Counted from the stretch's first letter, positions 3,280 to 43,349 are shown. The stretch is DNA of 64,000 nucleotides from Acholeplasma sp. (GCA_012838635.1 DUOW01000018.1:22764-86763); one strand, 5' to 3'. Program-made: numbers and translations. The notes: a model not told the origin generated them from the letters alone.

Positions 3280-4079
3280 TGTTTGGTTTAGACGCTAAAG
3301 TCAGTGCTTTTTTAGGAATTGCTTTAATTTTTTTAGCAACTACTGGAGGATCTGCACTTGTTTATTTAGTTAAAAATAAACTTCCTAAAAAAGTATTTAA
3401 AGGAATTATGGGTTTTGCTTCTGGTGTTATGATGAGTGCTGCTATCTTTTCATTATTGATACCATCGCTTGATCTTTCATTGGAGAAATATGGAGATTTT
3501 AAATTTCCTTATTTTCCTGCTATTATTGGTTTGGTTTTAGGAATAATCTTTTTGATGGTAATTGATAGATTGGTGCCTCACTTACATCAAGATTATAAAC
3601 AAGAAGGTTTACCATCTAATTTGAAACAATCAACGATGCTTTTCTTAGGAGTATCACTACATAATATTCCAGAAGGGTTATCAGTAGGTTTTGCTTTTGG
3701 TGTTGGGATTGCTAGTGGTAATTATGAGTTAGTTACATCTGCTGCAATGCTATCTATAGGAATAGCTATTCAAAATTTCCCTGAAGGTGCTGCTGTTAGT
3801 TTATGTTATAGACAGTCAGGGTATTCAAAAACAAAGTCATTTTTATTAGGGATGTTTTCTGGTTTAGTTGAACCTATTTTTGCCGTTTTGGGAATCTTGT
3901 TTGCGACATTATTTACAAGCTTAATGCCTTGGCTTTTAGCTTTTGCGGCAGGAGCAATGATTTATATTATTATTGAAGAGTTATTGCCTGCAAGTGTTGA
4001 TAAAGAATCTCATTCACATATTGGTGTAATTAGTTTCTTTGTTGGCTTTGTAATTATGTTGGTTATTGAATTGCTTTAA
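3279..4079 (+). CDS. ZIP-family zinc/metal transporter (ZupT-like)
   Basis: HNIPEG and QNFPEG motifs in a multi-TM protein. Confidence 0.85.
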   Translation: MFGLDAKVSAFLGIALIFLATTGGSALVYLVKNKLPKKVFKGIMGFASGVMMSAAIFSLLIPSLDLSLEKYGDFKFPYFPAIIGLVLGIIFLMVIDRLVPHLHQDYKQEGLPSNLKQSTMLFLGVSLHNIPEGLSVGFAFGVGIASGNYELVTSAAMLSIGIAIQNFPEGAAVSLCYRQSGYSKTKSFLLGMFSGLVEPIFAVLGILFATLFTSLMPWLLAFAAGAMIYIIIEELLPASVDKESHSHIGVISFFVGFVIMLVIELL

Positions 4080-4100
4080 AAGTAAAAAAAGAGATAAAAA

Positions 4101-4127
4101 AAGAAGAGCATTATGCTCTTTTTTTAA
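4101..4127 (+). terminator. rho-independent terminator
   Basis: AGAGCA-ttat-TGCTCT followed by T7. Confidence 0.65.
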
Positions 4128-4160
4128 AAAATGTGTTATAATATATCAAAGAGGTGGATT

Positions 4161-4451
4161 ATGAAGTATTGTCCAAAATGTCAAGTAGAAGTAGATTCTA
4201 AAACAGCTAATTGCCCTTACTGTAAAGAACCTTTAATTATTAGGCCAACTCCAGGTAAGCCAAATGAGGCTGCTGAAAATATAAAAGGAATTAATGAGTT
4301 TATTGTCTTTGCATCATTAGTCGTTCCTTTTTTAGGTTTTATTTTATATTTTACTTGGAAAGAAAAGAAAACATATCAAGCTAAGTTTTATTTAGGGATT
4401 GGTATTGTTTCTATAATTTGTTATGTTGTAATGTTTATTATACTTTATTAA
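4161..4451 (+). CDS. zinc-ribbon domain membrane protein (hypothetical)
   Basis: CPKC...CPYC zinc ribbon followed by TM helices. SD GAGGTGG before the ATG at 4161. The ORF track starts at 4131 but that start has no SD. Confidence 0.55.
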   Translation: MKYCPKCQVEVDSKTANCPYCKEPLIIRPTPGKPNEAAENIKGINEFIVFASLVVPFLGFILYFTWKEKKTYQAKFYLGIGIVSIICYVVMFIILY

Positions 4452-34786: not shown

Positions 34787-35920
34787 ATGAAACTATTTAA
34801 CTTTGAAGACGGCTATGTTGGGGAAAATAAAGGTCTTTTAGATTTCTTTATTAAAACTTTAAATGGCATGGCTTATGGCCTTTTTGCTACACTACTTGTA
34901 GGGACAATTTTAACTACTTTTGCTACATACGTTCCTTTACCAGAAGAAGTAAAGACAATTATTTTAACTGTAGCTTCGGTTATTAAAGGGTTAATGGGAC
35001 TTGGTATCGGTATTGGCGTCAGTATGAGTTTAAAACTTAGTGGTCTAAAGCTAATTGTTGCTTCAATTGCTGGTGGGATTGCTGTTTTATTTCCTCAAGC
35101 TTATACTCCAAGTACAGCTAGTTGGTGGACAGATTTTTCAGGAACTTCTAGTGATCCTTTAGTAATTTATGTTGTAGTTATTGGAACAATTTTTGTTATG
35201 AATACAGTTCTTACAAAAAAGACACCAGTAGATATTATTATCGTTCCTATTCTTGGAGTATTAACTGCTGCGTGTTTTAGTTTAATTGTAACTAAACCAA
35301 TTATTACTTTGATCTCTTATATTGGCAAATTCATTATTCTTGCAACTGATGCAACACCCTTTATTATGGGATTAGTTATTTCGGTTGTTATGGGGATGGC
35401 TCTAACAGCACCAATTTCTTCAGCTGCCATTGCTATTTCTATTCATTTAGGAACTAATGCTATTAATGCTGGATTTAGTGAAGCTGATGCTTATATTTTA
35501 GGAATTGCAGGTGGTGCAGCTTTAGTTGGATGCTGTAGCAATATGCTTGGGTTTGCAGTTATGAGTAGAAAAGATAATAATATTGGAACAATTATCTCAG
35601 TTGCTATTGGTACAAGTATGCTTCAATTTAAAAACATTTTAAAAAAGCCAATCATTTGGCTTCCACCGATTATTGTTAGTGCGATTTTAGGACCGCTATC
35701 GACTATGGTATTTAAAATGACAACAACATCAATTGGTGCGGGAATGGGAACTTCTGGTTTAGTTGGTCAGATTGAAACGATAACTTCAATGGGAGTTAAT
35801 GCTAGAAGCATTTTATCAATTTTAATCTTACAAATTATCTTGCCAATTGTTTTAGTGTGGATTATTGATATAATCTTTAGAAAATATAACCTTATTAAAA
35901 AAGGTGATTTAAAAATTTAA
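34787..35920 (+). CDS. polytopic membrane permease (family uncertain, PTS-EIIC/KdgT-like)
   Basis: About 10 TM segments. Confidence 0.45.
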   Translation: MKLFNFEDGYVGENKGLLDFFIKTLNGMAYGLFATLLVGTILTTFATYVPLPEEVKTIILTVASVIKGLMGLGIGIGVSMSLKLSGLKLIVASIAGGIAVLFPQAYTPSTASWWTDFSGTSSDPLVIYVVVIGTIFVMNTVLTKKTPVDIIIVPILGVLTAACFSLIVTKPIITLISYIGKFIILATDATPFIMGLVISVVMGMALTAPISSAAIAISIHLGTNAINAGFSEADAYILGIAGGAALVGCCSNMLGFAVMSRKDNNIGTIISVAIGTSMLQFKNILKKPIIWLPPIIVSAILGPLSTMVFKMTTTSIGAGMGTSGLVGQIETITSMGVNARSILSILILQIILPIVLVWIIDIIFRKYNLIKKGDLKI

Positions 35921-35949
35921 TATTAAATAATTTTGGTTTTTGATGCAAA

Positions 35950-36095
35950 ATTAAAAGGGAATCTAGTTAGAATCTAGAACAGCCCCCGCTACTGTAGAAG
36001 TGGAGTACTTTATTACTTATGATCACTTAAAGGAAACTTTTGGGAAGATCTATAAAGTATGATGATGCTTTAAGTCAGGAGACCTGCCGAGATTA
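35950..36095 (+). ncRNA. cobalamin (B12) riboswitch aptamer
   Basis: GGGAA at 35957. CAGCCCCCGCTACTGT at 35980-35995. B12 box AAGTCAGGAGACCTGCC at 36072-36088. Confidence 0.85.
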
Positions 36096-36140
36096 TAAAT
36101 AAGAATTTCGGAGGGAAATTTGTTATTAGTTATAAAAACA

Positions 36141-36166
36141 AAACTACCCTTTTCGGGTAGTTTTTT
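36141..36166 (+). terminator. riboswitch expression-platform intrinsic terminator
   Basis: aaaCTACCC-ttttc-GGGTAGttt followed by T6, 20 nt before the RBS of the 36187 gene. Confidence 0.75.
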
Positions 36167-36186
36167 AATAAAGAAAGGAGATTAGT

Positions 36187-37785
36187 ATGAAAAGAGCACT
36201 TATTTTTATCTTGCTTTTATTTGGCTTTGCTTTTAGTATTAACTTAAAAGCTGAAAGTGAAGAGATAAACTATAGTTCTGTAAATGATTGGTTAGTTTTA
36301 AAATATTATAAACAAGACCAAGATTTTAATAAAATTTATTATCGCGCCCAAATAAAAGAATATTTAAAAACGTTAGAGACTGATAAAATGACTGAATATC
36401 ATCGCTTGATTTTTGCATCACTTGCTTGTAATTTAGATCCTAGAAATATAAGTATTGATAATCAAGAATACGATTTATTAAAAATAGGTGTTTTTGATAC
36501 TAAACAGGAAAATCTTTTAGAAAAACAAGGGCTAAATAGTTTAATCTTTAGTTTGTTAGCACTTGATAGTATGAGATTTCCAAATGATGAAATTGAAGAC
36601 TATTATACTAGAGAAGATATTATTCATGAGATCTTAAAGAAAGAATTAAAGGCAGGGGGATTTGCTTATATTGGGACAGTCCCAGATCCTGATATTACCT
36701 CAATGACTTTACTTGCTTTAAGTAAATATCAAAATGATTTAACTGAATATAGAGTCTATTCAAAAAGAGAAAATAGAATTATTAATGTAAGAGTAAAAGA
36801 TGTAATCAATACAGCTTTAGATACTTTAGGTAGTCTTCAAGGTGAAGATGGAGATTTTTCTTCCTTTGGTTCTTATAACTGCGAGAGTACTTCGCAAGTT
36901 CTTTTAGCACTATCAAGTTTAGGTGTTGATCCATTGCTTGATACAAGATTTATTAAAAATGGTAATACTGTTTTAGATGGATTAAATAAATATAAACTAG
37001 AAGAAGGTAAATATAAAAGAGGAGATAATTATTCAGAAATAGCTACAAGACAAGCTGAAGAAGCATTATTAAGTTATAATAAATATCTAAATTCTCAAAG
37101 AACTTATTATGATTTGCTTCCTGAATTTAGTGAAACTGAAAGAGCAAAAATTATTAATTTAAAAAGCAAGATTGATGCAATTAATAGCACTACTAATTTA
37201 GAAGCATTATATCAAGAATATCTATCAATTCCTTACCGCGACCGTTTCTATATTTATAACTATAATAAGTTAGAAGAAAAATTAGTGGAAAATGGCATTG
37301 TTTTAAATGAAGAAAAAGAATATCCAGAAGTAGTAATTAAGGCATTAGTAATAGATAATTATAATAGTGCTGCTATTGAGCAAGATTTAAATGAAATAAT
37401 GATTTCTAAATATAATAAGTATTTATATTATAAAGAACTTTACGATATTTTAAAGAAAGATGATAGTTTAATTATTGATGCTATTTCTTTAATTAAAGAT
37501 GAAGAAATTAAAGTTGCAAGATTAAATAAACAAATTAAGGATTTTCTTGATAAAACTGAAGAAGACGAAGAAGAAGCACTTTTAATTAAAGAAAGTTATG
37601 AGTCCTTAAAATATGGTGGTAAAGACTATATTACAGAAGATTATAACGAAGTTTTGAAAGTAATAGGAGAAGAAAAGAAAGATTTATCTTTCTATATTTA
37701 CTTAAGTTTGATTATTGCTTTTATTGGCCTAACAACTACATTAGTTTTTGTAATTATTAAACGTAGGAGGGCTAAAAGGCTATGA
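36187..37785 (+). CDS. surface-anchored prenyltransferase/terpene-cyclase-like alpha6/alpha6 toroid protein (transcobalamin alpha-domain-like), signal peptide plus C-terminal TM anchor
   Basis: PFTB-type repeats (QGEDGDFSSFGSYNCESTSQVLLALSSLG; GGFAYIGTVPDPDITSMTLLAL). C-terminus LSLIIAFIGLTTTLVFVIIKRRRAKRL. Confidence 0.65.
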   Translation: MKRALIFILLLFGFAFSINLKAESEEINYSSVNDWLVLKYYKQDQDFNKIYYRAQIKEYLKTLETDKMTEYHRLIFASLACNLDPRNISIDNQEYDLLKIGVFDTKQENLLEKQGLNSLIFSLLALDSMRFPNDEIEDYYTREDIIHEILKKELKAGGFAYIGTVPDPDITSMTLLALSKYQNDLTEYRVYSKRENRIINVRVKDVINTALDTLGSLQGEDGDFSSFGSYNCESTSQVLLALSSLGVDPLLDTRFIKNGNTVLDGLNKYKLEEGKYKRGDNYSEIATRQAEEALLSYNKYLNSQRTYYDLLPEFSETERAKIINLKSKIDAINSTTNLEALYQEYLSIPYRDRFYIYNYNKLEEKLVENGIVLNEEKEYPEVVIKALVIDNYNSAAIEQDLNEIMISKYNKYLYYKELYDILKKDDSLIIDAISLIKDEEIKVARLNKQIKDFLDKTEEDEEEALLIKESYESLKYGGKDYITEDYNEVLKVIGEEKKDLSFYIYLSLIIAFIGLTTTLVFVIIKRRRAKRL

Positions 37786-38315
37786 AACGAAGAGATTTAT
37801 TGTTATTTGCCTTTTTAGTTTTAGTTGTAGTTGGTTTAATTTTTGGAGTAAAGATTGAAAGTGTTGATGAATACTATTTAAGAAATACTGAGAATATTAC
37901 TGAAGATAGTGAAGTAGTTTATTTACAGATTGAATGTAAAGTATTAATAAATAAAACTGAAAATATTAAACAATCTTTACTTGATGAAGGTATTATTCCT
38001 GATGATGGGATTTTCTTAAAAGAGAAGACTTTAGTTTTAAGAAATAAAGACACGGTTATGTCAATTCTAAAAAGAGCTAGTAGATATTATCGGTTTAATT
38101 TAGAAGGTGAAGGACTTAATGGCAGTTATTATATTGAAGGAATATATGATTTGTATGAATTTGATTGTGGACCTTTAAGTGGATGGTTATTTTATGTAAA
38201 TGGGGAAAGATCGGGGCAATCATCAGATAAAGTTTATTTAGAAAATGGCGATAAAGTCGTTTTAAAGTATTCTTGCGATATGGGTAATGATCTTTTAGGA
38301 GATGTTCATGAATAA
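37782..38315 (+). CDS. DUF4430 (transcobalamin-like C-terminal beta-domain) protein, N-terminal membrane anchor
   Basis: Hallmark GPLSGWLFYVNGERSGQSSDKVYLENGDKVVLKY. ATGA overlap with the upstream gene. Confidence 0.75.
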   Translation: MKRRDLLLFAFLVLVVVGLIFGVKIESVDEYYLRNTENITEDSEVVYLQIECKVLINKTENIKQSLLDEGIIPDDGIFLKEKTLVLRNKDTVMSILKRASRYYRFNLEGEGLNGSYYIEGIYDLYEFDCGPLSGWLFYVNGERSGQSSDKVYLENGDKVVLKYSCDMGNDLLGDVHE

Positions 38316-39189
38316 GATTAAGAGTTTCCATCCACTTACGATTTTTCTCTTCTTTATTTTGAATATGACCTTTACTTTATTTACTTATAATCCTATGATT
38401 TTAGGAATTTCGTTGGTAGTTAGTTTATTTTATTCTTTGTATTATCACGATTTTAAAATCTTTTTAGGAAATATCGGCTTTTATTTATTCACAATTTTGT
38501 TTATTGTTTTAATAAATCCATTGTTTAATCATCGTGGTTCAACAATTCTCTTTTTCTTAAATGAACAAGCTATTACTAAGGAATCAATTATTTTTGGTTT
38601 AGCTATTTCTATAGCCCTAGTTAGCATTATTGTATGGAGTTCAATTTTCTCTTATACAATGGATACTGATAAGAATATGTATTTGTTTTCTAGGGTATCA
38701 GTTAATCTAGCTATAATTATTGCTTTAGTTTTACGTTTTATTCCAGAAATGAAAAGAAAGAAACAAGAGTTTATTGATACTCAGACTACTTTAGGAATGA
38801 AGAAAACTAAAAGTTTAAGTGTAAGATTAAGTATAAGTTATCAGATTTTACTTGCATTAATAACTTGGTCTTTAGAGCATTATTTAACTTTAAGTTTAAG
38901 TATGAAGGCTCGAGGTTATAAACAAGGTAAAAGAAGTTATTATCATAATTATGCTTTTAAGTTAAAAGATTTTGTACTTCTATTATTTGGTTTTTTATTG
39001 TTAGCTTTTTATATTTATTGTAATTATCAAGGACATTTATACTTTTACTATTACCCAGTTATAGGACAGTTAAAAATAAATATTTATAGTATTATTTTGT
39101 TTAGTGCTAGCTTTTTGTTTATGATGCTACCATTAATTTATGAGATAGGAGTGAGCTTAAAATGGCATTTCTTAAGGCGAAAAATTTAA
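38302..39189 (+). CDS. ecfT: ECF transporter transmembrane (T) component
   Basis: CbiQ-family topology; conserved ARG motif (SMKARGY). Confidence 0.75.
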   Translation: MFMNKIKSFHPLTIFLFFILNMTFTLFTYNPMILGISLVVSLFYSLYYHDFKIFLGNIGFYLFTILFIVLINPLFNHRGSTILFFLNEQAITKESIIFGLAISIALVSIIVWSSIFSYTMDTDKNMYLFSRVSVNLAIIIALVLRFIPEMKRKKQEFIDTQTTLGMKKTKSLSVRLSISYQILLALITWSLEHYLTLSLSMKARGYKQGKRSYYHNYAFKLKDFVLLLFGFLLLAFYIYCNYQGHLYFYYYPVIGQLKINIYSIILFSASFLFMMLPLIYEIGVSLKWHFLRRKI

Positions 39190-40802
39190 GTTTTAGATAT
39201 TTAGATGATACCTTTACTTTAAGTAACGTTAACTTTTCTTTAGAGAAAGGTGATTTTTGCTTGGTTGTAGGTAAGACTGGGTGTGGTAAGACAACGCTAC
39301 TTAGGCTTTTGAAGAAAGAAATTACTCCTAGTGGTTCATTAAAAGGGGAAGTAAAGATTAATGGACTTGATTTAAAAGATTATGATTCAAATAAGATTGT
39401 TTATATGTTTCAAAATCCTTCAAGACAAATTGTTAGTGATAAAGTTTATCATGAGATTGTTTTTGGCTTAGAAGCAAGAGGTATTGAAAAGGAAGTTATG
39501 GAAGCTAAACTAGCGGAGATAGTAAATTATTTAGATATTAATGATTTACTTAATAAACATACAATGGAACTTTCTGGAGGAGAAGCCCAACTTGTAAGTT
39601 TGGCATCACTTTTAGTATTAGATCCAGAAGTCATTTTGCTAGATGAAGCATCATCACAATTAGATCCACTAACTAGAAAAAAGTTTTTAGAGATTTTAAA
39701 AAGAATTAATCAAGATTTTGGAATTACAATTATTTTAGTTGAACATAATTTAGAAGATGTTTTAGAGTTTACTGATAAAGTGATAGTTTTAGATCAAGGA
39801 AAGATGCTTTATTTTGGAGTTAAAGATGAGGCAATTGATTTTCTTGGCAATAATGAAGAATATTTTAATTTCTTATCAAAAACATTACAAATTTCCAAAC
39901 ATTTAAATTTAGGGAATTTGCTTCATTTGAAAGATGTTAAGGAAGCATTAAAAAGTAAGTACAAAAATGAGATTAATTTTGAGTATGAGATAAAAGATTT
40001 TGAAAAAGAAATCATTAAAGCAGAAGATTTATATTATCGCTATAGCAAGAAAGAAAGAGATGTTTTAGAAAAGCTTTCTTTAACTGTTTATGATAATGAG
40101 ATCTTAGGATTTGTTGGGGGAAATGGTGTTGGTAAAACAACATTACTTAAAAATTTAGCTGGAATTAGAACTTTCTATTCAGGTAAAATAGAGATTGAAA
40201 ATAAGAATATTAAGAAATATAAAGGTAATTCACTATATAAGAATTTAATAGCTTATTTACCACAAGATCCTCTAACATTATTCTTAAAACGAACTGTAGG
40301 TGAAGACTTAGGGTATTATGTAAAGAGTTTAGATTTAGATAAAGATTTATTAAATAGATTAATTAAGAAATTTAGGATTGAAAATTTATTAGAAATGAGT
40401 CCTTATGACTTATCTGGGGGAGAATTACAAAAATGTGCTTTTACAAAAATTTTGCTTTCGAAGCCTAAGATTTTACTTTTAGATGAACCAACTAAAGGTA
40501 TGGATTTTAGTTTAAGAGAAGAACTAAAAAAAATATTATTAGCATTACAAAAAGAAGGGGCAACGATTATTATTGCAACGCATGATTTAGAGTTTATTGC
40601 AAGTATTGCCGATAGAGTTGGAATTATGTTTAATGGTAAAGTTTTAAGCCTAACTGATAGTCATAGTTTCTTTAGCAACAGCAATTTTTATACAACTGTT
40701 GCTTCACTTGCATCAAGAAAGCTTTATGATAAAGTTATTACTGTTCCTGAGCTTGTAGAGATAGCTATGAAGAATGGAATTAAAGATGAAAAAGATAATT
40801 AG
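39162..40802 (+). CDS. ecfA: ECF transporter fused duplicated ATPase (EcfA1-EcfA2 / CbiO-type)
   Basis: Two Walker A motifs (GKTGCGKTT; GGNGVGKTT), two LSGGE signatures, two Walker B motifs. Confidence 0.85.
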   Translation: MAFLKAKNLSFRYLDDTFTLSNVNFSLEKGDFCLVVGKTGCGKTTLLRLLKKEITPSGSLKGEVKINGLDLKDYDSNKIVYMFQNPSRQIVSDKVYHEIVFGLEARGIEKEVMEAKLAEIVNYLDINDLLNKHTMELSGGEAQLVSLASLLVLDPEVILLDEASSQLDPLTRKKFLEILKRINQDFGITIILVEHNLEDVLEFTDKVIVLDQGKMLYFGVKDEAIDFLGNNEEYFNFLSKTLQISKHLNLGNLLHLKDVKEALKSKYKNEINFEYEIKDFEKEIIKAEDLYYRYSKKERDVLEKLSLTVYDNEILGFVGGNGVGKTTLLKNLAGIRTFYSGKIEIENKNIKKYKGNSLYKNLIAYLPQDPLTLFLKRTVGEDLGYYVKSLDLDKDLLNRLIKKFRIENLLEMSPYDLSGGELQKCAFTKILLSKPKILLLDEPTKGMDFSLREELKKILLALQKEGATIIIATHDLEFIASIADRVGIMFNGKVLSLTDSHSFFSNSNFYTTVASLASRKLYDKVITVPELVEIAMKNGIKDEKDN

Positions 40803-41484
40803 ATATGCGGTCATATTTGGCTTAATTCCTTTAATTTTGGTTTTGTTTTATTTTTTACTTGATTCAAAACAATATGGAATTATTTCTGTCTTAATTGCGA
40901 TATTGGCATTAATACCATTCTATTTATCTTTTGAAGGCTCAAAACCTAAAATTGAAGAGTTAATTCTAGTGGCAATTGTTATTGCTATTAATATCGTTTC
41001 AAGAATTCTTTTTGCACCTTTACCAGGTATTAAACCAATTGGGGCAATCATTATTATTGCTGCTTTAATTTTTGGAAAAGAAGCAGGGTTTATGATTGGC
41101 TCTTTAACAATGGCTATTTCCAACTTTTATTTTGGACAAGGACCATGGACACCATTTCAGATGTTTGGTTTTGGGATTATAGGTTATTTAGCTGGTTTAT
41201 TTAAGAATAATTTTTTAAAGAAAAATATCTATTTTGTTTTATTTTTAGGAGGGTTATCAGGAATCTTTTATGTTCTCTTGATTGATGTTTGGACAACACT
41301 TCAAGTAACATCAGGATTTAATTTTAAAGATTATTTTAACTTTATCATTATTTCAACCCCAACAACAATTGGTTATATGGCTTCAAATATGTTGTTTTTG
41401 ATCTTGCTTTATAAACCTTTGATGAATTTATTTGAAAGAATTCAAAAAAAGTTTAATCTTTTTAATGATAAAACTAGTAAATAA
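40774..41484 (+). CDS. putative ECF substrate-specific (S) component, CbrT-like (cobalamin)
   Basis: 236-aa 6-TM protein, last gene of the B12-riboswitch operon. Confidence 0.5.
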   Translation: MELKMKKIIRYAVIFGLIPLILVLFYFLLDSKQYGIISVLIAILALIPFYLSFEGSKPKIEELILVAIVIAINIVSRILFAPLPGIKPIGAIIIIAALIFGKEAGFMIGSLTMAISNFYFGQGPWTPFQMFGFGIIGYLAGLFKNNFLKKNIYFVLFLGGLSGIFYVLLIDVWTTLQVTSGFNFKDYFNFIIISTPTTIGYMASNMLFLILLYKPLMNLFERIQKKFNLFNDKTSK

Positions 41485-41511
41485 TAGTAATTAGTGATAT
41501 AATTACTTTTG

Positions 41512-41557
41512 TTAGATGTTCGCCTTGCATAACCATCTAAAATAAAAAACAAGGAGG
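41512..41557 (+). ncRNA. preQ1-I riboswitch
   Basis: P1 TAGATG/CATCTA with a UUC-containing loop. A-rich tail AAAUAAAAAAC. Pseudoknot CCUUG (loop) / CAAGG overlapping the SD AAGGAGG. Confidence 0.75.
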
Positions 41558-41562
41558 TAAAA

Positions 41563-42057
41563 ATGAAAGTTATTGTGAGGAATGCTTTAATAGCAGCGCT
41601 TTATGTAGTCTTTACAATTATCAATCCTTTTTCTTTTGAAAACATTCAATTTAGAATTTCTGAAGTATTGATTTTGCTTGTTTTCTTTAGAAAAGACTAT
41701 TTCTTAGGATTAGTTGTTGGCTGTATTATTGCTAATATGTTTAGTCCAATGGGTATTTATGATGTCATCTTTGGAACGTTAGCTACTGTTTTAAGTTTAA
41801 TCTGTATTATGTACTCTAAACACTTATTTATTACTTGGATCTTTCCAACTGTGTTTAATGCTTTTATTGTTGGGTTAGAATTATACTTAATTTTAGAGTT
41901 GCCATTTTGGTTAAGTGTTCTAGGAGTTGCAATTGGAGAAGCAGTTGTAATGATTATAGGGGTAGTTTTATTTTATTTCTTAAAAAGAAATGATGCTTTT
42001 ATGAATTTAATAAAAGCTAATCAAAACTATACTTTTAAAGATGATTTAAGTAGTTAG
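41563..42057 (+). CDS. queT: queuosine-precursor transporter QueT (ECF-type S component)
   Basis: 164-aa 5-TM QueT-like protein directly after the preQ1 riboswitch. Confidence 0.7.
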   Translation: MKVIVRNALIAALYVVFTIINPFSFENIQFRISEVLILLVFFRKDYFLGLVVGCIIANMFSPMGIYDVIFGTLATVLSLICIMYSKHLFITWIFPTVFNAFIVGLELYLILELPFWLSVLGVAIGEAVVMIIGVVLFYFLKRNDAFMNLIKANQNYTFKDDLSS

Positions 42058-42088: not shown

Positions 42089-42117
42089 TGGACATTCATT
42101 TAAATATGGGGTATAAT
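42089..42117 (+). promoter_or_regulatory. promoter (TGGACA, 17 bp spacer, TATAAT)
   Basis: Positions the TSS ~25 nt upstream of the leader-peptide ATG. Confidence 0.5.
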
Positions 42118-42147
42118 GAAAATAATAAAATTAGGAGGAAAAGAACT

Positions 42148-42207
42148 ATGTTAGTTAATTTTCAAAACAAATTTTATTACTATTATTACTTTCCAAGGAT
42201 ATCATAA
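42148..42207 (+). CDS. 19-aa leader peptide MLVNFQNKFYYYYYFPRIS with five consecutive Tyr codons
   Basis: SD AGGAGG 9 nt upstream. Tyr run flanked by Phe codons. Confidence 0.55.
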   Translation: MLVNFQNKFYYYYYFPRIS

Positions 42208-42249
42208 AGGTTTCTTGGCCTTTTTCCTGTTGTGAAAGTGCCAATATAA

Positions 42250-42351
42250 CTGTTATTATGATATCAAACGTAAAAGTTTAATTGATAAGTAATAACAGTA
42301 TTCTAAAATATTATTAGATTAAAATGTGTTATTACTTATAACACATTTTTT
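42250..42351 (+). promoter_or_regulatory. transcription attenuator with mutually exclusive 1:2 / 2:3 / 3:4 helices plus a T-run
   Basis: Region 1 CTGTTATTA 42250-58. Region 2 ATAAGTAATAACAG 42285-98. Region 3 TGTTATTACTTAT 42327-39. Terminator GTGTTAT-tactt-ATAACAC + T6 at 42326-42351. Confidence 0.55.
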
Positions 42352-42371
42352 AATTTAAGGAGGTTTATAAA

Positions 42372-43349
42372 ATGAAATTAAGAAGAATGCTAGGAATGAT
42401 TTTAGTATTTATATTTGGTGTTTTATTAGTAGGTTGTAAGAAAGATGATAAAACACAAATCGGGATTTTGCAACTTGTTGCAGCACCTGCTTTAGATGAA
42501 GCGAGAATTGGCTTTTTAGAAGTATTAGAAGAAAATGGATTTAAGGATGGAGAGAATATTAAAGTTACTCTTGAAATCCCTAATGCAGACCAAACTGTTA
42601 TGATGCAACAAGCAAAAAGTTTAGTAAGAAAATCAGATCTTATTTTATCTATTGCCACAAACGCAACAGCAGCAGCCCAAAATGCTTTAATTGAAGCAAA
42701 TAAAACGACACCGCTTTTATTTACAGCAGTTACTGATCCAGTAGCTCATGGATTTGTAGAGTCAATGGCTAAACCAGGAGGTCATATTACTGGTACTAGT
42801 GATATGAACCCAGTAGTAGAACAAGTAGGGCTTGCAAAAGATCTTTTACCTGAGGCAACTAAGATTGGCTTCTTATATAACTCAAATGAGGAAAATTCAA
42901 GAGTTCAAGTAGAAATGGGTGTTGCAGCAGCTGAAAGTTTAGGAATGACTACTGTTGTAAAAACAATTAGTGAAGTTAACCAAATTGATCAAGTTGCAAG
43001 AAGTTTATTTAATGATGTAGATATTGTTTATGTACCAACGGATAATATGTTAGCTCAAAATATGGTACTACTTACAAATCTTTCATTAAGTACAAAGAAA
43101 CCAATTATTGCTGGTGAAGAAAATCAAGTTCGTGATGGAGCTTCAATTACATTTGGTATTAACTACCGTGATTTAGGAAGACAAACAGGACAAATGGCAG
43201 TTGAGATTTTGAAAAATGGTAAGAAACCTCAAGATATTCCTGCTGCTGTGTCAGAAACATATACTTTAATTGTAAACAAAACAAATTTAGAAGCAATGGG
43301 TATTACTGTTAGCCAAGCATTATTAGATAAAGCTGACGAAGTTATTTAG
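42372..43349 (+). CDS. ABC transporter substrate-binding lipoprotein (COG2984 / ABC_sub_bind family; predicted amino-acid importer)
   Basis: LVGC lipobox; family-typical periplasmic domain. Confidence 0.75.
   Translation: MKLRRMLGMILVFIFGVLLVGCKKDDKTQIGILQLVAAPALDEARIGFLEVLEENGFKDGENIKVTLEIPNADQTVMMQQAKSLVRKSDLILSIATNATAAAQNALIEANKTTPLLFTAVTDPVAHGFVESMAKPGGHITGTSDMNPVVEQVGLAKDLLPEATKIGFLYNSNEENSRVQVEMGVAAAESLGMTTVVKTISEVNQIDQVARSLFNDVDIVYVPTDNMLAQNMVLLTNLSLSTKKPIIAGEENQVRDGASITFGINYRDLGRQTGQMAVEILKNGKKPQDIPAAVSETYTLIVNKTNLEAMGITVSQALLDKADEVI

Follow-up and report, generated by a model that had tools for sequence, protein, structure and literature searches.

The locus considered here raises two connected questions: whether the leader of a transport operon is a cobalamin riboswitch acting through termination of transcription, and which compound the products of this operon import. 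The window, i.e. the whole stretch of DNA analyzed, comprises 64,000 nucleotides; its GC content is 25-32% (in 2-kb windows), and nearly all of its genes lie on the plus strand. Since a metagenome-assembled Acholeplasma sp. in NCBI has a protein 100% identical to the product of gene 2 of the operon, the host is most likely Acholeplasma, a wall-less member of the Mollicutes. We consider it highly probable that the leader is a cobalamin riboswitch repressing a B12-uptake operon by premature termination. The arguments are as follows.

Among all 4227 Rfam families, RF00174 (Cobalamin) gave the only gathering-level match in the 64 kb. The match spans 35917-36105 on the plus strand and the complete model (positions 1-189 of 189), with 110.9 bits against a gathering score of 31.5 and an E value of 6.2e-27, and it bears out the RNA class proposed in the original prediction: this segment is a classical cobalamin riboswitch aptamer. 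All its elements lie on the plus strand. The RF00174 alignment places P1 at 35927-35937 / 36086-36096 and the P2 hairpin at 35938-35950, so that the aptamer begins about 30 nt upstream of position 35950, from which the element had previously been counted. The GGGAA junction (35957-35961, seen both in the sequence and in the RF00174 match) is followed by a T-loop hairpin (35962-35978), by the stretch CAGCCCCCGCTACTGT (DNA; 35980-35995, its ACU being 35991-35993), which contains P5/L5 (35981-35990; L5 loop CCCCCG at 35983-35988, with CCCCC at 35983-35987), by a peripheral P6 extension (35998-36071) and by the B12 box AAGTCAGGAGACCTGCC (RNA AAGUCAGGAGACCUGCC; 36072-36088, again by both sequence and RF00174). 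In the part of the box at 36073-36088, AGUCAGGAGACCUGCC, 15 of the 16 residues equal the model consensus AGCCAGGAGACCuGCC, the exception being U36075 in place of C. The GCCCCCGC-ACUGUA core motif, like the B12 box, aligns to its consensus position in RF00174; given also the strong match to the model, neither of the outcomes named beforehand as refuting the original prediction occurred. GGGAA, CAGCCCCCGCTACTGT, the B12 box and the CTACCC/GGGTAG hairpin with T6 discussed below were all found where the original prediction had located them.

Standard pairs occupy 43 of the 51 consensus pairs of the aptamer in the parsed RF00174 alignment. Three of the eight non-standard pairs (A-G, C-A and U-C, 35991-35993 / 36076-36079) belong to the non-canonical consensus of RF00174 itself and are not flagged by Infernal, which flags only five pairs. 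Of these, the outer end of P1 has two (both A.A), the top of P2 has one and the peripheral extension the other two. Riboswitches of class I, or AdoCbl type, with an intrinsic-terminator platform are widespread in Firmicutes upstream of B12 transport genes. The leader shares with RF00174 switches the B12 box, the GGGAA junction, the T-loop hairpin, the C-rich L5 and the peripheral P6 extension, as well as the order of a hairpin with a G-rich loop after P1, then a terminator, and a position 5' of B12 uptake genes; the aptamer is placed 81 nt 5' of an operon that encodes a CbrT-like ECF transporter and a protein resembling the transcobalamin beta domain. The ligand is probably of the AdoCbl type. 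Nothing essential distinguishes this aptamer from typical RF00174 members, although the leader is very AU-rich (32% GC) and its P2 is short. As an RNA it belongs, as a standard member, to one of the commonest riboswitch families, and both the riboswitch class and the gene cassette are already in the literature, so that the window provides an ordinary example of a very common class. Our literature search found no paper joining Acholeplasma with the phrase 'cobalamin riboswitch', and the locus provides an instance of cobalamin sensing and B12 scavenging in a bacterium that is Acholeplasma-like and has no cell wall.

As to the origin of the transcript, we infer that the only plausible promoter of the leader is a candidate extended -10 element, TGATATAAT (TGnTATAAT), read from the sequence at 35867-35875 on the plus strand, from which transcription would probably start near 35882. 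This site lies within the final 54 nt of the PTS EIIC gene upstream (34787-35920, plus strand), whose stop codon overlaps the first bases of the RF00174 match. It has no -35 hexamer and hence was not listed by the consensus promoter scan; in five relatives it is kept as TGATATAAT or TGATATCAT. A promoter at TAATAT (35918-35923) was also considered and rejected, as its start would fall inside P1. The scan found no terminators between the stop codon at 35920 and position 36140, and read-through from upstream may enter the leader; the logic of the switch is unaffected either way.

The expression platform that follows the aptamer was folded in sub-segments with ViennaRNA, both complete (36097-36170) and as nascent RNA ending at 36150 or 36154; its elements, too, are on the plus strand. 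The complete platform is predicted to fold into two hairpins with a minimum free energy (MFE) of -18.6 kcal/mol, and the same is true of the related leader of locus L078. The first hairpin, P13 (AAUAAGAAUUUC-GGAGG-GAAAUUU(G)UUAUU, 36098-36127, about -5 kcal/mol), carries the loop L13, GGAGG(G), at 36110-36114(5). The second is an intrinsic terminator, AAAACUACCC / UUUUC loop / GGGUAGUUUU, at 36140-36164 with a U run to 36166 (-12.9 kcal/mol). Its core, formed by CTACCC (36144-36149) and GGGTAG (36155-36160) and followed by T6 (36161-36166), is the hairpin that had been described at 36144-36166; hairpin and T6 are indeed present, but the stem comprises 10 bp, not 6. In the same way, the distance of 20 nt formerly assigned to the Shine-Dalgarno (SD) sequence holds to the ATG at 36187, while the T tract is only 9 nt from the SD itself (AGGAG, 36176-36180, 6 nt before the ATG).

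The nascent RNA, ending at 36150 or 36154, is predicted to adopt another structure, an antiterminator at 36110-36152 with an MFE of -8.1 to -10.1 kcal/mol (-10.1 for 36097-36154, compared with about -5 for P13 by itself), in which GGAGGG (36110-36115) pairs with CCCUUU (36147-36152) and UUUGUU (36119-36124) with AACAAA (36137-36142). It is likewise the MFE structure of the nascent RNA in L078 and is mutually exclusive both with P13 and with the terminator. Folding suggests, in all, a platform of three states: P13, antiterminator and terminator. Being AU-rich, interrupted and thermodynamically inferior to the state with P13 and the terminator, the antiterminator could act only kinetically; kinetically acting antiterminators are common among such switches. 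We lean slightly towards this specific pairing.

In published structures of the cobalamin riboswitch family, a kissing loop between L5 and L13 couples ligand binding to the expression platform. The L13 loop of P13 is complementary to the CCCCC of L5, and we propose a kissing contact here by analogy; the complementarity is short, consisting of GG/CC and GG/CC around an A.C mismatch, or, with the closing pair opened, of three contiguous G-C pairs. Both loops are invariant across the six leaders available (the window and five relatives) and so carry no covariation bearing on the contact. With a corrinoid bound, the aptamer (35917-36105) would offer L5 (CCCCC) to L13 (GGAGG) of P13 (36098-36127), and this contact would keep P13 closed and the G-run of L13 occupied. 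The C-run at 36147-36149 would then be free for GGG at 36155-36157, the 10-bp terminator (36140-36166) would form, and a leader of about 285 nt would be released. If no ligand is bound, the 3' half of P13 would, together with the G-run of L13, capture AACAAA and CCCUUU of the emerging 5' arm of the terminator, and the resulting antiterminator (36110-36152) would let the polymerase read into the operon. The outcome would be negative feedback on B12 import. The leader would thus represent a compact, AU-rich example in which L13 could toggle directly between L5 of the aptamer and the C-run of the terminator.

Comparison with related loci shows how the leader has been conserved. Relatives were taken from a protein database and one metagenome scan, which yielded five related leaders of three lineages, all at least 94% identical; the identity of gene 1 in these loci is 99% in L079, 78% in L078 and L080, 79% in L081 and 84% in L082. 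Between the window and L078, nucleotide identity amounts to 95.1% over the whole leader (95.2% in the aptamer and 94.0% in the expression platform), against 78.5% in gene 1, 86.3% in gene 2 and 85.2% in the tail of the upstream ORF. Because the leader is 95.1% identical and the flanking coding DNA only 78.5-86.3%, the non-coding leader, with its linker, P13 and terminator, is under stronger constraint than the coding DNA around it. The changes seen in the platform of the six leaders either fall in predicted loops and linkers, namely in the terminator loop (C36154->U), in the apical part of the antiterminator and in the linker between P1 and P13, or preserve pairing: through G36103->A in relatives, a G.U pair of P13 becomes A-U, and an antiterminator pair is retained as G.U where L078 and L080 have A36137->G. 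The stem of the terminator is invariant, the change C36154->U in its loop being the only one in this hairpin. In the aptamer, U35934->G in L081 and L082 would convert a U.G pair of P1 into G.G and weaken this pair. The six leaders are too similar to give covariation for P13, the antiterminator or the terminator, the only two changes at predicted paired positions being both one-sided; the substitution pattern is consistent with the switch model, short of proof by covariation.

The same anatomy bears on the level at which expression is controlled. The SD (36176-36180) is unpaired in every predicted fold, so that control should be transcriptional; translational control by sequestration of the SD was rejected, since pairing with an anti-SD is absent from every fold. 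One could suppose that the hairpin at 36140-36166 does nothing more than terminate the upstream PTS EIIC operon constitutively, and that the riboswitch acts otherwise, on translation or RNA stability, or is a relic that no longer switches. The scan that found no other terminator between the EIIC stop codon at 35920 and position 36140 fits such a role, as do the weak definition of the proposed promoter and the symmetry of the hairpin (36140-36164), which is preceded by an A run and followed by a U run and was listed by the consensus scan on the minus strand only. However, with a constitutive terminator in this place, five genes that begin 20 nt downstream and lack any other promoter would be silent; the freely accessible SD leaves no translational platform; and the platform between aptamer and hairpin is 94% conserved, compared with 78-86% in coding DNA, with a mutually exclusive antiterminator available. 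We therefore regard this explanation as very improbable. As for the minus strand, ORFs of 120 aa or more are absent from it for about 24 kb to both sides of the terminator, and a bidirectional role of the hairpin seems accordingly unnecessary. Both an intrinsic terminator between aptamer and start codon and an antiterminator incompatible with it are present in silico. The position of the terminator, after the aptamer and ahead of a free SD, together with the alternative folds and the conserved platform, thus supports the transcription-termination OFF switch of the original prediction, which is the reading best supported by the anatomy, the outcome of termination being deduced from folding and conservation.

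The strong conservation of the whole leader, linkers included, is also the sole point in favor of another possibility, that the terminated RNA of about 285 nt acts in trans, e.g., by sequestering a protein or an RNA. Small RNAs with AdoCbl riboswitches are known in Enterococcus and Listeria to act in this manner. In the present leader nothing beyond the standard aptamer, P13 and the terminator needs explanation, Rfam found no ANTAR-type or other known binding motifs, and the conservation is explained by control in cis; we find a trans-acting role hardly credible.

The original prediction had assigned six genes to the operon. The overlapping operon comprises five, all on the plus strand, whose overlaps of 4, 14, 28 and 29 nt make them one unit; the sixth, queT, looks separate and follows after a gap of 78 nt. 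Gene 1 (36187-37785) encodes a protein of 532 aa with a signal peptide, an alpha/alpha-toroid (approximately residues 30-310), a helical region and a C-terminal transmembrane (TM) anchor. By fold score its toroid is no closer to transcobalamin than to terpene cyclases, i.e. it is a generic toroid, and the protein is a candidate corrinoid binder similar to the transcobalamin alpha domain. Gene 2 (37782-38315, 177 aa) encodes an N-terminal TM anchor and a DUF4430 domain (Pfam PF14478, E 9e-12). In a Foldseek search of the PDB with its model (pLDDT 77, moderate), the top 19 matches, with E values from 5e-6 to 1e-4, were beta domains of transcobalamin, intrinsic factor or haptocorrin, or 3U7Z, a DUF4430 structure (PDB), and the next match had an E value of 0.04; the model thus gives gene 2 the beta-grasp fold of the transcobalamin / intrinsic-factor beta domain. 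A homology between gene 2 and BtuH was considered, and no link is drawn: the BtuH paper (PMC8941943) mentions neither DUF, transcobalamin nor intrinsic factor. Gene 3 (38302-39189, 295 aa) codes for EcfT of the CbiQ family (PF02361, E 5.5e-10), and gene 4 (39162-40802, 546 aa) for a fused EcfA-EcfA' ATPase with two ABC_tran domains and with matches to TIGR04520 and TIGR04521 just under the cut-offs. Gene 5 (40774-41484, 236 aa; PF07155/PF12822) encodes a CbrT-related ECF S component. Its best sequence match in the PDB is 6FNP chain A (E 3.9e-10 over 169 residues); 6FNP is the vitamin B12 transporter ECF-CbrT (PMC5997447), and we take chain A, labeled 'Membrane protein' in the PDB, for the CbrT subunit from its length and S-component family.

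From the sequences and models of its products, the operon would therefore encode a dedicated ECF-type cobamide importer together with two extracytoplasmic transcobalamin-like accessory proteins. Such a gene set is what a B12 OFF switch would be expected to control, and the earlier suggestion that the genes are induced by B12 scarcity fits an importer of the CbrT type and transcobalamin-like capture proteins. Among ten further ORFs scanned, there was no B12-dependent enzyme.

The importer has several counterparts. Like ECF-CbrT of Lactobacillus delbrueckii (6FNP; PMC5997447), it has a homologous S component along with EcfT and EcfA/A'. CbrT of L. delbrueckii uses the shared, common ECF module (PMC5997447), whereas the energizing module in the window is dedicated and lies in the operon (the group I arrangement), with A and A' fused, and two extracytoplasmic accessory proteins are added. 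Descriptions of ECF transporters usually note the absence of extracytoplasmic solute-binding proteins (bioRxiv 10.1101/864751). For bacteria, Burroughs et al. (2007; PMC1796856) described SLBB domains of the transcobalamin-like kind in CbiO/CbiQ operons, frequently in fusion with alpha/alpha toroids, and predicted B12 scavenging from gene context. In Lactobacillus sakei, the lsa1836-1840 genes encode an S component, a fused A-A', a T component, a TC-beta-like and a TC-alpha-like protein, and a role in heme uptake was reported for them in a 2019 preprint (bioRxiv 10.1101/864751). The window shares with these systems the toroid protein, the DUF4430/SLBB beta-grasp protein, T, A-A' and S, as well as the predicted extracytoplasmic location of the accessory proteins. 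It differs from them in that the two domains are on separate TM-anchored chains, neither fused nor attached by SLH or LPXTG; anchoring of separate chains by TM segments plausibly fits a wall-less host. What differs from the published examples is thus this arrangement in separate chains, the Acholeplasma host and the compact platform in which L13 apparently doubles as a strand of the antiterminator.

The L. sakei locus suggests a further alternative, in which the riboswitch is genuine but heme or another tetrapyrrole, not a cobamide, is what the transporter imports. The same five components with a reported role in heme uptake (bioRxiv 10.1101/864751) and the generic nature of the toroid of gene 1 would be compatible with it. 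The best PDB match of the S component, 6FNP chain A from ECF-CbrT, points the other way, as do the fold matches of gene 2 at E values below 1e-4, which are confined to corrinoid-binding beta domains and 3U7Z. Besides, in riboswitch-controlled importers the usual logic is feedback by the transported compound. Unlike the L. sakei system, the locus of the window is directly under a cobalamin riboswitch, and this argues for a corrinoid substrate over the heme role.

The association of riboswitch and cassette can be followed far beyond the closest relatives. Relatives of gene 1 are encoded in more than 577 stretches of species-representative genomes, mostly of Clostridia, and 34 distant loci encoding the toroid protein were scanned with Rfam, used instead of a strict regular expression for the B12 box, which undercounted the riboswitches across loci. 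RF00174 was found upstream of the toroid gene on the same strand in 16 of the 34, at distances from adjacent to about 6.5 kb, and on the opposite strand in none of the 34. In two of the loci, L001 and L008, additional large proteins with DUF4430 domains (2816-4534 in L001; 1361-3658 and 3672-5048 in L008, one of the L008 proteins having three SLH repeats) are encoded between the riboswitch and the same toroid - DUF4430 - EcfT order. In L001, whose sequence reaches further, there follow a 567-aa ORF at the place of the ATPase and an S component. This suggests multi-protein corrinoid-capture arrays at the cell surface in Clostridia. The platforms of the distant relatives are not homologous to that of the window, yet end in terminator-like hairpins with U runs; they support a terminator-type platform in general, not the specific pairing proposed for the window. 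Some of the distant loci have more than one riboswitch: L035 (Ligaoa zhengdingensis NSJ-31) has RF00174 matches at 3752-3935 (115.3 bits) and 4073-4222 (45.3 bits), about 140 nt apart and upstream of the toroid-protein gene, possibly a tandem cobalamin riboswitch, and L059 and L074 have two cobalamin riboswitches each within about 5-6 kb.

The riboswitch here and in 16 of the 34 distant loci speaks independently for corrinoids as the compounds handled by the toroid - DUF4430 - EcfT - EcfAA' - S cassette. Because of this direct control, here and in many relatives, corrinoids are favored as the substrate, at least for riboswitch-controlled loci, and import of heme by the transporter of the window appears improbable. 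The finding bears on the claim of heme import in L. sakei and on the existence of external capture proteins for some ECF transporters.

The most interesting point of the locus is biochemical and does not concern the RNA: the toroid and DUF4430 proteins may act as a corrinoid-clamping receptor feeding an ECF transporter. The predicted beta-domain fold of gene 2 and the alpha/alpha toroid of gene 1 resemble the two domains of the eukaryotic transcobalamin, intrinsic factor and haptocorrin. The toroid-then-DUF4430 order is likewise that of transcobalamin; it recurs both in the gene order of the window, where each domain has a chain of its own and the two genes overlap by 4 nt, and in four bacterial homologues in which they are fused (P0021, P0025, P0028 and P0029). 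In contrast to transcobalamin, the window has two separate membrane-anchored polypeptides, and sequence identity is 13-17%. We give about even credence to the idea that the products of genes 1 and 2 clamp a corrinoid outside the cell and pass it to the CbrT-like S component, as a two-chain receptor coregulated by the riboswitch. If true, this would mean an extracytoplasmic substrate-capture step for an ECF transporter, and the riboswitch linkage would argue that a widespread cassette carries cobamides, not heme. The idea of capture goes back to a prediction of 2007 (PMC1796856) and was taken up again for L. sakei; an experimental demonstration and the substrate argument from the riboswitch would be the new elements.

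Downstream of gene 5, queT (41563-42057, plus strand; PF06177, E 7e-43) is probably served by a promoter and a preQ1 switch of its own, judging from motifs in the 78-nt gap. The gap contains the promoter-like TGATATAAT (41495-41503) and a preQ1-I-like aptamer at 41509-41558, matched over the full RF00522 model with an E value of 0.29 in a search of 961 nt; the score of 19.6 bits falls short of the gathering score, 39. By eye, the aptamer loop CCUUG can pair with CAAGG overlapping the SD of queT, as in the preQ1-I pseudoknot. There are no terminators between gene 5 and queT, so read-through from the one into the other is possible. The same nonamer TGATATAAT thus precedes both riboswitch-like leaders (35867-35875 and 41495-41503), each time with no recognizable -35 element, and may represent a promoter style of this organism.

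A third leader precedes a TrpX-like ABC substrate-binding gene at 42372-43349 (NF041285, 253 bits, under the cut-off). In Firmicutes and Mollicutes T-boxes dominate, and a tyrosine-sensing attenuator would be unusual there; no T-box was found at 42089-42371. This leader starts with a strong promoter-like TGGACA-17-TATAAT (42089-42117, 11 of 12 matches) followed by an SD, AGGAGG, and by a 19-codon ORF (42148-42207), MLVNFQNKFYYYYYFPRIS*, with five consecutive Tyr codons flanked by Phe. It is highly structured (z -4.0) and ends in a terminator-like hairpin, AAAAUGUGUUAU/AUAACACAUUUU, with a U run (about 42323-42352). The region 42089-42371 is a possible ribosome-mediated, tyrosine-sensing leader-peptide attenuator.
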